Assembly (NCBI RefSeq): GCF_058153355.1
Contig: NZ_CM177019.1
DNA length: 64,000 bases
Reading direction: 5' to 3' (one strand)
Positions 1-9,800 of the stretch are shown here, piece after piece (within the stretch, counting starts at the first letter, position 1; each line of letters opens with the position of its first letter). A model generated the notes under the pieces. It had not been told where the DNA came from. It did not search any database and saw only the letters and a program-made list of their open reading frames with translations. The position numbers and the translations under genes are program-made.

Positions 1-630
1 CAACAGCTTGCATCTTCAGCCAAACGTTATGGCTTCGATGCCGTCTCCGCCGTCACGCCGTTCTACTACCCTTTCAGCTTTGAAGAACACTGCGATCACT
101 ATCGGGCAATTATTGATTCGGCGGATGGGTTGCCGATGGTGGTGTACAACATTCCGGCGTTAAGCGGCGTTAAACTGACCCTGGATCAGATTAACACTCT
201 GGTTACGTTGCCTGGTGTCGGCGCGCTGAAACAGACCTCTGGCGATCTCTATCAGATGGAGCAGATCCGTCGTGAACATCCGGATCTGGTGCTCTATAAC
301 GGTTACGACGAAATCTTTGCTTCTGGTTTGTTGGCGGGCGCTGATGGTGGTATCGGTAGTACTTACAACATTATGGGCTGGCGTTATCAGGGTATCGTGA
401 AGGCGCTGAAAGAAGGCGATATCCAGACCGCGCAGAAGCTGCAAACCGAATGTAATAAAGTCATTGATTTACTGATCAAAACGGGCGTATTCCGCGGCCT
501 GAAAACGGTCCTGCACTATATGGATGTCGTTTCTGTGCCGCTGTGCCGCAAACCGTTTGGTCCGGTCGATGAAAAATATCTGCCAGAACTGAAGGCGCTA
601 GCCCAGCAGTTGATGCAAGAGCGCGGGTGA
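1..630 (+). CDS. nanA: N-acetylneuraminate lyase, 3' portion (5' end lies outside the window)
   Basis: Frame-1 translation from position 1 is continuous to stop at 628-630 and matches the NanA C-terminal region (…[22 protein letters not shown]…); followed by nanT as in the nan operon. Confidence 0.9.
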
Positions 631-738
631 GTTGTTTCCCCTCGCTCGCCCCTACCGGGTGAGGGGAAATAAACGCATCTGTACCCTACAATTTTTATAC
701 CAAAGCGTGTGGGCATCGCCCACCGCGGGAGACTCACA

Positions 739-2229
739 ATGAGTACTACAACCCAGAATATCCCGTGGTATCGCCATCTCAACCGCGCACAATGGCGCGC
801 ATTTTCCGCTGCCTGGTTGGGATATCTGCTTGACGGTTTTGATTTCGTTTTAATCGCCCTGGTACTCACCGAAGTACAAGGTGAATTCGGGCTGACGACG
901 GTACAGGCGGCAAGTCTGATCTCCGCAGCCTTTATCTCTCGCTGGTTCGGCGGCCTGATGCTTGGCGCTATGGGCGACCGCTACGGGCGTCGTCTGGCAA
1001 TGGTTACCAGTATCGTTCTCTTCTCGGCCGGGACGCTGGCCTGCGGCTTTGCGCCAGGCTACATCACCATGTTTATTGCTCGTCTGGTCATCGGCATGGG
1101 GATGGCGGGAGAATACGGCTCCAGCGCCACCTATGTCATTGAACGCTGGCCAAAACATCTGCGTAACAAAGCCAGTGGCTTTCTGATTTCCGGCTTCTCG
1201 GTGGGTGCCGTCGTTGCCGCTCAGGTCTACAGCCTGGTGGTTCCGGTCTGGGGCTGGCGAGCGCTGTTCTTTATCGGCATTTTGCCAATCATCTTTGCTC
1301 TCTGGCTGCGTAAAAACATTCCGGAAGCGGAAGACTGGAAAGAGAAACACGCAGGTAAAGCACCAGTACGCACGATGGTAGACATTCTTTACCGTGGTGA
1401 ACATCGCATTGCCAATATCGTAATGACGCTGGCGGCGGCTACTGCGCTGTGGTTCTGCTTCGCTGGTAACCTGCAAAATGCCGCAATCGTCGCTGTTCTC
1501 GGGCTGTTATGTGCCGCAATCTTTATCAGCTTTATGGTTCAGAGTACGGGCAAACGCTGGCCAACGGGCGTAATGCTGATGGTGGTTGTGTTATTTGCTT
1601 TCCTCTACTCATGGCCGATTCAGGCACTGCTGCCAACGTATCTGAAAACCGATCTTGCTTATGACCCGCATACTGTTGCCAATGTGCTGTTCTTTAGTGG
1701 CTTTGGTGCGGCGGTGGGGTGCTGCGTCGGTGGCTTCCTCGGTGACTGGCTGGGAACCCGCAAAGCGTACGTTTGCAGTCTGCTGGCCTCACAGCTGCTG
1801 ATTATTCCGGTATTTGCGATTGGTGGCGCAAACGTCTGGGTGCTCGGTCTGTTACTGTTCTTCCAGCAAATGCTTGGACAAGGGATCGCCGGGATCTTAC
1901 CGAAACTGATTGGCGGTTATTTCGATACCGACCAGCGTGCAGCGGGCCTGGGCTTTACCTACAACGTTGGCGCATTGGGCGGCGCACTGGCCCCAATCAT
2001 CGGCGCGTTGATCGCTCAACGCCTGGATCTGGGTACTGCGCTGGCATCGCTTTCGTTTAGCCTGACGTTCGTGGTGATCCTGCTGATTGGGCTGGATATG
2101 CCTTCTCGCGTTCAGCGTTGGTTGCGCCCGGAAGCGTTGCGTACTCATGACGCTATCGACGGCAAACCATTTAGCGGTGCCGTGCCGTTTGGCAGCGCTA
2201 AAAACGATTTAGTCAAAACCAAAAGTTAA
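739..2229 (+). CDS. nanT: Sialic acid (N-acetylneuraminate) MFS transporter
   Basis: ORF 709..2229; conserved N-terminus [13 protein letters not shown] begins at ATG 739; 496 aa polytopic membrane protein; synteny nanA-nanT-nanE. Confidence 0.9.
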
Positions 2230-2275
2230 TCCTGTTGCCCGGTCTTCTACCGGGCCTTTCGCTAAGGGAAGATGT

Positions 2276-2961
2276 ATGTCGTTACTTGCACAACTGGATC
2301 AAAAAATCGCTGCTAACGGTGGCCTGATTGTCTCCTGCCAGCCGGTTCCGGACAGCCCACTCGATAAACCTGAAATCGTCGCCGCCATGGCATTAGCGGC
2401 AGAGCAGGCGGGAGCGGTTGCCATTCGTATTGAAGGTGTGACAAATCTGCAAGCCACGCGTGCGGTGGTGAGTGTGCCGATTATCGGGATTGTGAAACGC
2501 GATCTAGAGGATTCTCCGGTACGCATCACGGCATATATTGAAGATGTCGATGCGCTGGCGCAGGCAGGCGCGGATATCATCGCGATTGACGGCACCGACC
2601 GACCGCGTCCGGTGCCTGTTGAAACGCTACTGGCACGTATCCACCATCACGGTTTACTGGCGATGACCGACTGCTCAACGCCGGAAGACGGCCTGGCATG
2701 CCAAAAGCTGGGAGCCGAAATTATTGGCACTACGCTTTCTGGCTATACCACACCTGAAACGCCAGAAGAGCCGGATCTGGCGCTGGTGAAAACGTTGAGC
2801 GACGCCGGATGTCGGGTGATTGCCGAAGGGCGTTACAACTCGCCTGCTCAGGCGGCGGATGCGATGCGCCACGGTGCATGGGCGGTAACGGTCGGTTCTG
2901 CTATCACGCGTCTTGAACACATTTGTCAGTGGTACAACACAGCGATGAAAAAGGCGGTGCT

Positions 2962-2965
<4 letters not shown>
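2276..2965 (+). CDS. nanE: N-acetylmannosamine-6-phosphate 2-epimerase
   Basis: 229-aa ORF; stop overlaps nanK start (ATGA); nan operon synteny. Confidence 0.9.
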
Positions 2966-4298
<1,333 letters not shown>

Positions 4299-4317
4299 AA
4301 CTTAGTTCGTTTTAAAG

Positions 4318-4342
4318 ATTCTGCAGACACTGTCTGCAGAAT
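4318..4342. repeat. Perfect 25-bp palindrome ATTCTGCAGAC-ACT-GTCTGCAGAAT between yhcH and the yhcG-like gene
   Basis: Read directly; same GCAGAC-N3-GTCTGC core as the three palindromes at 4829-4932. Confidence 0.9.
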
Positions 4343-4367
4343 TCGAAACCGCTGAAATTAACGGCGT

Positions 4368-5234
4368 CTATAGCCTTCCTCTAGCACCGCCTGTGTTCGA
4401 ACGAGTTCGGCGGTGGAAAAACAGCAGATCGACACGAAACCAGTTGTCATCAATGCGTAACCTTCGCTGCCGACCAACAAAGGCAAAATCATCCCCAAGT
4501 TCCAGCATTAAATCCATCAGGTGATTGATCAGCGCCTCCTCAAAATCGGATTCTGAGTATTCATCTTTCAATTCCAGAAATTCGAGCACAAAGGGATCGC
4601 GTATCGCCTGTTGCGGAAGAATATGCGTCTCGGCAGGAGCGTGTTGTTGCAGCATGGCTGATTTGTCATGTGACAGTAGTGTTCGCTCATAAAATTGGGT
4701 CGCAATTTGCCGCTCTAGCTGGCGGACAGACCAACCACAGCGGAGCGCCTCTTTTTCATAAAAGCTGCGGGCGTCAGCGTTTTTAACGGAAAGTAGACGG
4801 ACGTAGGTGGACCAAGGCAGGGGGAACGATTTGGCAGACAGCGTCTGCCAAATCTTTGCCGATGGGAATTCTGCAGACGGTGTCTGCGGAATTCCCAATG
4901 GTGTTAATTCGCCAGACACTGTCTGGCGAATTTCAACATGTTGAAAAAAGAGGTAAAAAAGCCTCATTTGGCGTAAGTTTTTTGCAGAGAACCCACGCTT
5001 ATACCTTAGACTTAAATCCTTTGATAGTCGCTTGATTAGCTGCGCACCATACGCAGCTCTGGCCTCGCCACCTTGTTCAAATTCGACAATTCGTCGGCCA
5101 ATTTCCCAGTACGTCGCGGTCATCAGCGCGTTAACGCTACGTACCGTTTCCGTTCGGGCGCTATCGACCAGATGAATAATGCCGTCGTGGATTTGCTGGT
5201 AGCCTGCTGTGGTTCCTTCTGAGAGCGATTCCAT
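4368..5234 (-). pseudogene. yhcG: YhcG-like DUF1016 (PD-(D/E)XK nuclease family) gene, apparently 3'-truncated and carrying an in-frame palindrome expansion
   Basis: 288-aa ORF with DUF1016-like N-terminal region (…TYWEIGRRIVE…, …NLRQMRLFY…, IWQTLSAK motif). It stops shortly after VDLLFFH, before the expected catalytic E-x-K segment. Only 69 bp separate its stop from the yhcH stop. Confidence 0.55.
4829..4945. repeat. Cluster of near-perfect palindromes inside the yhcG-like coding sequence (4829-4853, 4864-4896, 4906-4932, plus CAACATGTTG at 4934-4943)
   Basis: Read directly: TTTGGCAGAC-AGC-GTCTGCCAAA; GGGAATTCTGCAGAC-GGT-GTCTGCGGAATTCCC; AATTCGCCAGAC-ACT-GTCTGGCGAATT. Each unit encodes a variant of the IWQTLSAK motif in frame. 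Confidence 0.85.
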
Positions 5235-5417
5235 TATCTTTCCCTTTATATGGCGCAGTGTTGAATAATGGAATCAGCTATACGCCGGGCATCTGCCGGT
5301 AACAATCCAGATGTGCGTATTACATTGGTTTTCTTCAGATTATGCGAGGCGCTTTCCAGAACGAAAGGAGAATTTCAGCGCCGACTCTTTTCTGAGGAGG
5401 CGGCGCTGGGACAGAGC

Positions 5418-6848
<1,431 letters not shown>

Positions 6849-9800
6849 TTACTGCGCCTGCACGCGCAACTCTGCTGCGCTACGACTACGGTGACCCAGC
6901 AGTGCTTTTACATCACTGGACTTCGGTTTAACCAGCGCGAATTTCGTGGCGAAGGTTGACCAGTTCGCCAGAATCTCTTCACCGCGCTGGGAACCGGTAT
7001 GCTGCACATGCTCGGTGATAAGACCACGCAGATGCTCTTCATGGATCGCCAAATCGTCAACGCTTAAGACCTCGACCAGTTCCGGGTTAACGCGTTTGCG
7101 GAAATCGCCGCTTTCATCGAGAACGTAAGCGAAGCCGCCGGTCATGCCCGCGCCGAAGTTAACGCCGGTTTTACCCAGAATACAGACAATACCGCCCGTC
7201 ATATATTCACAGCCGTTGTCGCCAATGCCTTCTACCACGGTGATAGCACCGGAGTTCCGCACGCCGAAACGTTCACCCGCGCGGCCTGCGGCATACAGAC
7301 GACCACCGGTCGCGCCATACAGGCAGGTGTTGCCGATAATGCTTGCTTCATGGCTGCGGAAGGCGGAACCAACCGGAGGACGAATGGCGATTAAGCCGCC
7401 CGCCATGCCTTTACCGACATAGTCGTTGGCATCACCGGTCAGGTACAGTTCCACGCCGCCCGCGTTCCACACACCGAAGCTCTGGCCTGCGGTGCCGTTG
7501 AAGTACGCTTTGATCGGATCGGCTGCCAGACCCTGATCGCCGTGCGTCTGAGCGATATAGCCTGAAAGCGACGCGCCGACAGAACGGTCGGTGTTGCGAA
7601 TATCGAACCAGAAGGTTTTGCTCTGACGCTCATCGACAAACGGTTTTGCCTGTTGCAGCAACTGCGCGTTCAGCAGGCCATTATCAAACGGCGGGTTGTT
7701 TTCGGTACAGTAGAGCGCCTTACCTGGATGCGGCTCGGCAGTCTCCAGCAGCTTCGACAGCGCCAGTTTCTGCTGTTTGGCGGTGAAACCGTCCAGCTCT
7801 TTGAGCAGGTCGGTACGGCCAATCAGATCCACCAGGCGCGTTACGCCCAGTTGCGCCATCAGCTCGCGGGTTTCACGGGCGATAAACTCAAAGTAATTGG
7901 TCACTTTGAACGGCAGGCCGTGATAGTGATTCTTACGCAGCTTGTCATCCTGAGTTGCTACACCGGTGGCGCAGTTGTTCAGATGGCAGATTCGCAGGTA
8001 TTTACAGCCGAGCGCCACCATCGGGCCAGTGCCGAAGCCGAAGCTTTCTGCGCCGAGAATCGCCGCTTTGATGATATCGACACCTGTTTTCAGGCCGCCA
8101 TCGACCTGCAAACGGATCTTATGACGCAAGCCGTTGGCAACCAGCGCCTGTTGTGTTTCAACAAGCCCCAGTTCCCACGGGCAGCCTGCGTATTTCACCG
8201 ATGAAAGCGGACTTGCGCCGGTGCCGCCGTCATAGCCTGCGATGGTGATCAAGTCCGCATAAGCTTTCGCCACGCCAGTCGCGATGGTGCCAACGCCCGG
8301 TTCAGAAACCAGCTTCACGGAGATCATCGCTTTCGGGTTAACCTGCTTGAGGTCGAAAATGAGCTGCGCTAAGTCCTCGATAGAGTAGATATCATGGTGC
8401 GGCGGCGGAGAGATCAGCGTCACTCCGGGCACCGAATAGCGCAGTTTGGCGATGTAAGGAGTGACTTTATCGCCCGGCAACTGACCGCCTTCGCCCGGTT
8501 TCGCGCCCTGGGCGACTTTAATCTGAATGACGTCAGCATTGACCAGGTACGCCGGAGTAACGCCGAAGCGACCAGAAGCCACCTGCTTGATGCGCGACAC
8601 TTTGTTAGTGCCGTAGCGCGCCGGATCTTCACCACCTTCACCGGAGTTCGAGTTACCGCCGATGCTATTCATCGCTTCCGCCAGCGCCTCGTGGGCTTCC
8701 GGGCTTAACGCGCCGATAGACATCGCAGCGGTATCGAAGCGTTTAAACAGTTCGCTTGCCGGTTCAACATCGGCAATGTTGACTGCGTTTTCACCCGGCG
8801 TAATTGCCAGCAGATCGCGCAGCGTGGTTGCCGGACGCTCATTAACCAGCTTCGCGTATTCCTGATAGTCGCTGTACTCGCCGCTTTGTACCGCCTGTTG
8901 CAGTGTGCGCACGACGTCCGGGTTGTAGGCGTGGTATTCGCCACCGTGCACGTATTTCAGCAAGCCGCCCTGGCTGATGGGCTTACGCGCCAGCCAGGCA
9001 CGTTTCGACAGATTCAGCAGATCCTGCTGGAAGTCTTCAAAGCTTGCCCCACCAATGCGGCTAACCGCGCCCTGGAAGCACAGGCCCACTACATCATCGT
9101 GCAGACCGACCGCTTCAAACAGTTTCGAGCCGCGGTAAGACGCGATGGTGGAGATGCCCATTTTGGACATGATTTTGTACAAGCCTTTGTTGATGCCGTT
9201 ACGGTAGTTGAGCATCACGGTACGATAATCTTTGGCAATCGCGTGGGTGTCTACCAGGCGGCCCAGCGTTTCATAGGCCAGGTACGGATAAATAGCCGTC
9301 GCGCCGAAGCCCAGCAACACGGCGAAGTGGTGCGGGTCGCGGGCGCTGGCGGTTTCGACGATGATATTGGCATCGCAACGCAGGCTTTGATCGACCAGAC
9401 GAGTCTGGATCGCGCCAACCGCCATCAGAGCCGGAACCGGCAGGCGATCTTTAGCGATATTCCGGTCAGAAAGCACCAGCAGCACGGTGCCGCTACGCAC
9501 CATCTGCTCTGCTTTGTCGCACAGCTCTTTGACCGTCGCTTCGAGCGTGGTTTTAGTGACGTCAAAGGTGATATCCAGCGTATTTGCGCGGTAGTGCTCC
9601 TCTTTCATCGTCGTGAGCTGTTTGAAATCGGAGTAGAGCAGAATCGGCGATTTAAAGCTTAAACGGTGCGCCTGGCCTTCTGCTTCACAGAAGACGTTCA
9701 TTTCACGCCCGATGCTGGTGGCGAGCGACATAACATGCGCTTCACGTAGCGGGTCGATTGGCGGGTTAGTGACCTGCGCAAACTGCTGGCGGAAGTAGTC

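Follow-up and report, generated by a model that had tools for sequence, protein, structure and literature searches.

We analysed the yhcG gene, and a family of short palindromes in and beside it, in a 64,000-nucleotide stretch of contig NZ_CM177019.1 (NCBI RefSeq assembly GCF_058153355.1; the whole stretch is called the window below). The window's yhcG is a pseudogene that arose from one internal, out-of-frame deletion of 251 base pairs (bp) between positions 4408 and 4409. The perfect palindrome beyond its 3′ end is a native element and no deletion scar. Taken as a whole, we hold with good confidence that the locus is best explained as an internal-deletion pseudogene together with a native palindrome that recurs across the DUF1016/YhcG family and for which we infer a role at the level of DNA.

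The internal deletion in yhcG

The best E. coli match to positions 4100-5500 of the window consists of two aligned pieces around 251 extra bases. With the intact yhcG of EC42405 as the reference, which encodes a protein of 375 amino acids (aa), the alignment shows a single gap of 251 columns between 4408 and 4409 (GAACGAGTT before it, CGGCGGTGG after it) and identical flanks. The endpoints share only 1 nt of microhomology (the C at 4408, within the junction at 4407-4409). In the sense strand, the missing bases follow codon R276 and comprise codons 277-360, LRCLLIVDLKVGK...EKRLAD. Since 251 is not a multiple of three, the frame shifts and the native tail is read in another frame, so that ELVRTQAVLEEGYRRR becomes TRSNTGGARGRL followed by a TAG at 4368-4370. 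The native 3′ end of the gene, with its last 16 codons and the TAA at 4358-4360, is still present at 4358-4407 on the minus strand.

The resulting open reading frame (ORF; 4368-5234, minus strand) is the pseudogene remnant recognized from the ORF list and Pfam. It encodes 288 aa with the C-terminus ...VDLLFFHRRTRSNTGGARGRL, is 87 aa shorter than the intact protein, and is 98 per cent identical to intact E. coli YhcG outside the deletion. Its DUF1016_N domain (PF17761) is intact (E 7e-44, above the curated cut-off), and YhcG_C (PF06250, 157 positions) is matched over positions 1-71, compared with 1-155 in the intact allele. D269 of the VDLLFFH segment is retained. The (D/E)xK element (D284-L285-K286), invariant in 50 homologues, lies inside the deleted 251 bp; the intact protein carries ...FFHRRLRCLLIVDLKVGK.... 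The predicted product keeps the helical DUF1016_N domain with most of the nuclease core gone, and it cannot be an active nuclease. An earlier note on this DNA, written from the sequence alone, had remarked on an ORF with an odd tail that stops after VDLLFFH without a (D/E)xK element, roughly 90 residues short, in front of a 69-bp spacer with a perfect 25-bp palindrome, and had proposed a probably inactive nuclease remnant. The ORF list and the palindrome scan bear out these observations, and the loss of the catalytic D-L-K together with most of the nuclease core bears out the proposal.

It is extremely improbable that the 288-aa ORF is a short but functional YhcG variant that natively ends here. 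The frame is uninterrupted and its N-terminal domain is intact, but none of the 120 best of 8,000 homologue hits ends with the same peptide tail, and the exact 288-aa sequence is absent from a collection of 15 billion proteins, as expected for a pseudogene. The tail is the native tail read out of frame, and the invariant D-L-K is missing along with the strands and helices that follow it. Because none of these best homologues has the window's tail and the sequence is absent from the protein collection, the note's description of the product as truncated and inactive stands; its placement of the gene end at the palindrome does not.

That placement came from the spacer. The stop of the ORF and the stop of the convergent nanQ (yhcH) are 69 bp apart (4299-4367), and this interval holds the solo palindrome ATTCTGCAGACA-C-TGTCTGCAGAAT at 4318-4342, whose 12-nt arms are 100 per cent complementary around a 1-nt centre. 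The note took the gene to be 3′-truncated by a terminal deletion ending at a copy of the palindrome, which would make the spacer copy a junction scar. The ORF is indeed short and lacks (D/E)xK, and palindrome-bounded rearrangements exist at this locus in other E. coli lineages. The alignment to full-length YhcG that the note had called for, however, puts the gap inside the gene, 66 bp away from the palindrome, with the native gene end kept. Nothing differs from intact alleles in the last 16 codons, the stop, the 59-bp native spacer, or the palindrome; spacer and palindrome agree base for base with three E. coli alleles whose yhcG is intact, and with K-12 as well. We give the scar explanation hardly any probability. 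All four palindromes of the window are retained by the remnant gene.

The deletion itself looks private to this strain's genome. Of 5,426 complete E. coli genomes, 3,511 match an 80-nt probe across this site, but only as halves 251 bp apart. No contiguous junction match was found among the 5,426 at E ≤ 1e-20, and the exact junction 30-mer had 0 matches in the Joint Genome Institute (JGI) metagenomes. Contigs carrying the window's identical NanE variant have a 375-aa yhcG, and the best complete E. coli genome is 99.0 per cent identical to the window over 11.5 kb. Shigella was considered as a source, but every window protein that was sampled bears the name E. coli, and rare variants lead to a draft assembly of E. 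coli.

Two possibilities weigh against calling yhcG inactivated in this strain. The first is an assembly or sequencing artefact in a strain whose yhcG is intact; the junction is unique among these genomes and metagenomes, and the closest relatives have the intact gene. We consider an artefact very unlikely all the same, as the deletion is clean, with identical flanks, no collapse-prone repeat, and endpoints that share 1 nt only, and as yhcG has very often been inactivated independently within E. coli. About 38 per cent of complete E. coli genomes cover less than 80 per cent of the locus query, including replacement and insertion sequence (IS) alleles and genomes without yhcG. Internal stops also occur in 4 of 80 species-representative homologues (loci L006, L026, L081, and L085). 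The second possibility is that an intact yhcG may lie outside the window. The note had suggested looking elsewhere for the missing C-terminal coding sequence, and the deleted 251 bp are not found elsewhere in the 64 kb.

L006 is the GTDB representative of E. coli, and a Methanoperedens copy is also among the four with internal stops. The window's pseudogene is ordinary decay of an accessory nuclease that is frequently lost in E. coli. As one more independent loss of such a gene, it carries little weight in itself.

We also considered that the deletion had formed at the border of an imported segment, given that identity to the nearest relative (window 1-6714 vs L110) is 99.5 per cent to the left of the junction, on the nan side, and 98.0 per cent to the right. 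The mismatches, however, fall in blocks to its left and its right alike (4160-4268 and 5532-5928 are examples), without a tie to the junction itself, and make up the kind of mosaic that recombination in E. coli typically leaves; an origin at an import border is a possibility at most.

The palindrome across the DUF1016/YhcG family

A search of the window with the degenerate pattern ATTCNNCAGACNNNGTCTGNNGAAT, allowing up to two mismatches, returned four sites in 64 kb (0.00 expected), starting at 4318, 4829, 4868, and 4907. All four are at yhcG, which confirms the note's description of the spacer palindrome as the fourth copy of an intragenic family. The three intragenic units are in frame and spaced 39 bp, or 13 codons, apart. 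Unit 1 (4907-4931, codons IRQTVSGE) is a perfect palindrome of 13+1+13 nt when the flanking A and T at 4906-4932 are counted, unit 2 (4868-4892, IPQTPSAE) has a single arm mismatch, and unit 3 lies at 4829-4853 (IWQTLSAK). Only 12 palindromes in the whole window reach 11 or more matched arm pairs; four of them are those of yhcG, and most of the others look like intergenic terminators. In a plus-strand ORF at 4856-5035 (59 aa), this peptide motif recurs in frame (ILQTVSAEF, IRQTLSGEF), probably as a mirror effect, because the DNA is palindromic.

The intragenic position is shared well beyond E. coli. We scanned one genome per species (GTDB representatives) and obtained a close set of 80 loci with 55-93 per cent protein identity, from Beta- and Gammaproteobacteria, Acidobacteria, Planctomycetes, Cyanobacteria, Nitrospirae, and one Methanoperedens archaeon. 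In 77 of them, the same gene position holds between one and three palindromes, whose arms measure at least 9 bp and which follow the form ATTnnnCAGAC-N3-GTCTGnnnAAT. This is a fixed codon position just 5′ of a conserved L-P/S-W-G/S-H motif, and the palindromes there are 19-33 bp long. By this family-wide position, which is defined in the present analysis and unpublished, the window's yhcG carries three in-frame copies at 4829-4931. A remote set of eighteen homologues (27-40 per cent identity) came from plasmids and viral contigs, with hosts that include Hymenobacter, Phocaeicola, Serratia, Shewanella, Enterobacter, Deinococcus, Anabaena, Rhodococcus, Legionella, Moraxella, Burkholderia, Leptolyngbya, and Curtobacterium. 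All but one of the eighteen (17/18) have a palindrome at the same spot, with stems unrelated in sequence. Over the family, the stems are near-perfect, 9-16 bp long, with a centre of 1-3 nt and AATT ends. Judged from these alignments, the palindrome is a conserved feature of DUF1016/YhcG genes generally, held by pairing rather than by sequence.

Copies outside the gene are few. The flanks of the 80 close homologues (362 kb) contain four extragenic copies, two in E. coli and two in L026; as a general model, the idea that the palindromes are the ends of a mobile yhcG cassette was rejected on this count. The two extra palindromes of L026 lie 220-260 bp upstream and are possibly a fragment of a second copy. 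In two Methylomonas loci (L017 and L031), a degenerate extragenic copy with the changed core ATTTCCGAAACACTGTCTCGGAAAT lies 91 bp upstream of the gene.

The motif is apparently undescribed in the open-access literature. It is not mentioned in four papers on the family (PMC1189080, PMC9881135, PMC4316617, and PMC2672614), a search of open-access full text for the palindrome sequence gave three unrelated short hairpin RNA (shRNA) or primer matches only, and a search of open-access text for PDDEXK nucleases with palindrome, hsdS, and hairpin gave nothing relevant. The K-12 annotation has no repeat feature at the palindrome sites.

Codon usage tracks the palindrome. We set sites by the protein motif alone (136 x-Q-T/S-x-S motifs in 77 genes with G+C contents of 40-67 per cent) and took the remainder of the same genes as background. 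At the motif, serine is encoded by TCT in 127 of 136 cases (background 11 per cent) and isoleucine by ATT in 98 of 109 (background 33 per cent). ACC appears for threonine once in 131 cases, compared with 40 per cent in the background, and among the lysine and glutamate codons there are no AAG and two GAG (backgrounds 58 and 47 per cent). The rare motif codons are kept even in genomes of 60-67 per cent G+C. As the palindrome is centred on a first codon position, first positions pair with first and third positions with second, so that synonymous sites are set by the partner codon.

The pairing is also maintained when the sequence changes. Each of three variable arm positions shows three Watson-Crick types, and all three are paired in 73 of 105 distinct units, compared with a mean of 7.8 and a maximum of 17 after shuffling. 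Some lineages have compensated changes in the core (TCGAC...GTCGA, CGAGAC...GTCTCG), with the peptide altered along with it, and in L073, L077, L080, and L082 amino acids are altered and pairing is kept. For the remote set, we used an ungapped alignment anchored on the Trp codon only and a 12-bp helix. In this alignment, 92.1 per cent of cells are paired, against 60.9 per cent after shuffling (0 of 500 shuffles), and there are 59 double-sided changes where 17.4 are expected; slid controls gave 31-46 per cent. RNAalifold independently predicted nine pairs, every one with compensatory changes. A palindrome of 19-33 bp at one codon offset, with covariation and synonymous tracking, points to selection on nucleic acid within the coding sequence.

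Which nucleic acid is under selection is less plain. The palindromes could act as RNA, as a hairpin in the yhcG mRNA and, for the solo copies, at the 3′ ends of the nanQ, yhcG, and gltD transcripts, with a role in mRNA stability, in translation pausing between subdomains, or in autoregulation by a protein that binds or cuts its own message. The predicted hairpins are very stable on either strand (-65 kcal/mol and z -9.7 for the array, about -25 kcal/mol and z -4.7 for the spacer copy), and the covariation supports pairing. Solo copies lie 15-19 bp after the stops of convergent genes, as do stabilizers of the repetitive extragenic palindromic (REP) type; for the spacer palindrome, the distance is 15 bp from the native stop of yhcG and 19 bp from that of nanQ. 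Some PD-(D/E)XK relatives (Can2 and Card1) cut RNA. Against this, G.U pairs are not enriched: in the remote set, they account for a single cell among the 144 of the eight inner pairs, and among the mismatches of the close (E. coli subfamily) set GT/TG and AC/CA are similarly frequent (9 vs 8). The constraints are symmetric between the strands, both in the stem and in the loop, which is R-S-Y and has G as often as C at its centre. An intrinsic terminator scan of 3800-5500 called 4318-4342 on neither strand; the spacer palindrome is followed by TCGAAACC on the plus strand and by CTTTAAAACG on the minus strand, with no T-run and hence no U-tract. Rfam gave only a chance match to mir-3913 (E 0.9, 19.6 bits against a gathering score of 100). 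The near absence of G.U and the strand symmetry therefore speak against selection on sense RNA alone and fit DNA, and we regard an RNA role as possible but doubtful. The signals would fit a DNA hairpin or cruciform, or a symmetric site that is kept perfect by template switching.

We also weighed the possibility that the palindromes have no function: an inherited quirk maintained by template-switch correction in a tolerant linker, with the solo copies as leftovers of rearrangement. The AlphaFold model of intact YhcG gives the repeat region (residues 101-139) a predicted local distance difference test (pLDDT) score below 50 and no secondary structure, and the E. coli repeat peptide is therefore predicted to be a tolerant, disordered linker; its unit number varies from 1 to 4. 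In a read-through allele, the spacer palindrome encodes ILQTLSGES, the same peptide motif as in the intragenic units, and in a read-through variant the downstream solo copy encodes LFQRFRILQTLSGES, close to the intragenic YFQRIEILQTVSGEF, which gives that copy the look of a collapsed piece of the array. Strict Watson-Crick pairing, too, suits templated repair. A functionless palindrome is nonetheless improbable, given that the same codon offset persists down to 27 per cent identity and across many phyla with wholly different stems, that rare codons are kept in genomes of 60-67 per cent G+C, and that amino acids change to keep the pairing in the four loci named above.

E. coli alleles of the nanQ-yhcG-gltD locus

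The window covers the E. coli region nanT-nanE-nanK-yhcH(nanQ) / yhcG / gltD-gltB. The convergent neighbour of yhcG, yhcH/nanQ, encodes N-acetylneuraminate anomerase (3834-4298, plus strand), and gltD (5418-6836, minus strand) is its upstream neighbour in alleles of the window's type. Here yhcG directly follows gltD; the gltF-yhcA-yhcD-yhcE-yhcF block of K-12 (617-7827 in L086) is absent from the corresponding interval (5235-5417), and so is the gltD-proximal solo palindrome of K-12. Most of the complete E. coli genomes whose match spans the whole query share the window's gltD-yhcG arrangement.

Across E. coli, yhcG carries one to four in-frame copies of the palindrome, with solo copies after yhcG and after gltD. 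K-12 (L086) has five copies: one after gltD (633-657), three in yhcG (8131-8233), and one after yhcG (8971-8995); each solo copy lies 15 bp after a stop, that of gltD or that of yhcG. The family occupies a median of three places per E. coli genome and a maximum of six, and is therefore no dispersed repeat of the REP type.

The copies are endpoints of rearrangement in several alleles. Genomes without yhcG, such as MNCRE44 (L002, 527-553), have one palindrome in a 67-bp nanQ/gltD spacer. Its nanQ-side flank is that of the nanQ-proximal copy of K-12, and its arms and gltD-side flank are those of the gltD-proximal copy. Such mixed flanks indicate a crossover of the two solo palindromes with loss of the gltF-yhcADEF-yhcG block, and the ST131-type allele without yhcG is a crossover of this kind. 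In the B-type allele (L109, NEBExpress, 400-895), about 470 bp of unrelated DNA stand in place of the downstream palindrome and of the C-terminal two thirds of yhcG, and yhcG homology restarts exactly at the first base of intragenic palindrome 3. A 101-aa gene in this insert, annotated as 'transposase', has no Pfam match. Members of E. coli and its close relatives have between one and four of the 13-codon units, and the resulting protein lengths are 349, 362, 375, and 382 aa. Judging from these alleles, the copies mark rearrangement endpoints elsewhere in E. coli and not for the window's deletion; the note's view of them as endpoints thus holds for the ST131-type and B-type lineages and fails for the allele that it described. 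The palindromes would in this way explain the structural polymorphism of the nanQ-yhcG-gltD locus.

Just upstream of the units, a run of 20 residues (aa 83-101) is only about 50 per cent identical between alleles that are otherwise about 99 per cent identical (window 4780-4990; proteins P0004, P0005, P0009, P0031, and P0034), which suggests localized gene conversion or diversification beside the palindromes.

A possible role and comparison with known systems

YhcG is a two-domain DUF1016/YhcG PD-(D/E)XK nuclease (PF17761 and PF06250; COG4804). The predicted structure has a NucS-like nuclease fold, with an N-terminal domain that matches only generic helical bundles; a PDB sequence search and NCBIfam gave no match for YhcG. 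An earlier profile analysis tied YhcG to DUF91 and to YraN/Hjc-like enzymes (PMC1189080). In K-12, the protein co-purified with HsdMRS and McrABC, and a yhcG deletion was synthetic lethal with hypomorphs of dnaB, dnaN, and parE (PMC2672614). The family is also a PADLOC candidate for single-gene defence (PDC-S02), and the intact allele matches its profile hidden Markov models with E 2.5e-135. About a quarter of the homologues lie between hsdM and hsdS (19 of 74 upstream neighbours and 16 of 75 downstream neighbours), in agreement with PMC9881135.

DUF1016/YhcG genes are plasmid-borne as well. On a Serratia plasmid (L093, 250-1299), the DUF1016 gene overlaps at one end with the stop of a DNA methyltransferase gene and at the other with the start of hsdS, and the three look translationally coupled. 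On IncP and IncA plasmids (L094 and L095, 241-1308), it overlaps the stop of a site-specific integrase gene.

We propose tentatively, as a reading that is quite possible, that the DNA itself is selected as a hairpin or cruciform, rather than the peptide or the sense-strand RNA, and that its putative reader is the encoded nuclease. The palindrome would act as a DNA hairpin or cruciform element inside the coding sequence and would be read by the NucS-like homodimer that the gene encodes, with self-regulation or self-directed recombination as its role. Because the palindrome moves with the gene into unrelated hosts and its stem is specific to the subfamily, the reader would most likely be the gene's own nuclease. 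As a side effect, the copies could become hot spots of recombination and rearrangement, and such activity might lie behind the solo copies, the differing unit numbers, and several of the E. coli deletion alleles, that of the window excepted. A broader claim is doubtful and is offered as conjecture: nearly every DUF1016/YhcG gene, in many phyla, on plasmids, on phage contigs, and in one archaeon, may embed a self-recognized structured-DNA element of an undescribed class. Such a putative element could serve host-independent self-regulation, or direct breaks or recombination at its own gene.

Several points count against this proposal. The palindrome is missing from three close homologues (L050, L067, and L083), and one remote homologue (L101) has only a degraded version. 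A G+C-rich centre and a spacer of 1-3 nt are unfavourable for spontaneous cruciform extrusion. The strictness of Watson-Crick pairing could come from template-switch ('quasipalindrome') correction and not from selection on DNA structure, and an mRNA hairpin role therefore stays a serious rival. Finally, a PDC-S02 representative failed to protect against T4, T5, or T7 (bioRxiv 10.1101/2024.09.26.614923), which leaves the gene's own role unsettled.

Whichever molecule is selected, the palindrome provides a concrete handle on YhcG, a common uncharacterized nuclease that is both a defence-island candidate (PDC-S02) and a frequent passenger of Type I restriction-modification operons, and it suggests a gene that carries its own substrate or operator. 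For annotators, the variable-length 'linker' of DUF1016 proteins would be set by DNA and not by protein function. Should the gene indeed carry a self-recognized structured-DNA element, E. coli K-12 yhcG would be a ready experimental model.

Within its own family, the window's copy has the same architecture as other DUF1016/YhcG proteins but lacks YhcG_C positions 72-157 and (D/E)xK. NucS/EndoMS (PDB 2vld) and the archaeal nucleases that resemble Holliday junction resolvases are homodimers that read DNA structure or symmetry, as is suggested here for YhcG. The N-terminal domain of NucS/EndoMS is unlike that of YhcG, and the predicted link in fold comes without a sequence-level PDB match.

Among palindromic repeats, the REP sequences and bacterial interspersed mosaic elements (BIME) are extragenic and dispersed, with hundreds per E. 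coli genome. Like them, the yhcG palindromes include short copies just after stops between convergent genes, form stable predicted hairpins, and serve as rearrangement endpoints; they differ in being unrelated in sequence, in occupying one to six places per genome tied to one locus, and in lying mostly in frame within a coding sequence. Rickettsia palindromic elements (RPE) are about 100-150 bp long and are dispersed in many unrelated genes of a single genus; they reportedly lie in frame in protein genes, a finding ascribed to Ogata et al. in 2000. They share with yhcG the in-frame palindromic units that add tolerated peptide segments, although the yhcG units are 25-39 bp long and keep to a single fixed position within one gene family, in hosts from many phyla.

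Integron attC sites are imperfect palindromes of 57-141 bp with extrahelical bases and RYYYAAC/GTTRRRY cores, found at cassette ends beside an integron integrase. The attC sites (PMC3053210) resemble the yhcG palindromes in keeping structure while the sequence varies, in having short conserved outer motifs (AATT...AATT in the yhcG palindromes), in a proposed action as folded single-stranded DNA, and in being frequent on mobile DNA. The yhcG stems, which are near-perfect, 9-16 bp long, centred on 1-3 nt, and inside a coding sequence, do not qualify as attC. A closer parallel in arrangement may be parS inside parB/spo0J. There, a palindromic site lies within the gene of its reader, and site and reader are inherited together. 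The parS site is conserved in sequence and shows no stem covariation, and the part of YhcG as a reader is putative, but the logic of co-inheritance is, by analogy, the one proposed here for the YhcG palindrome.

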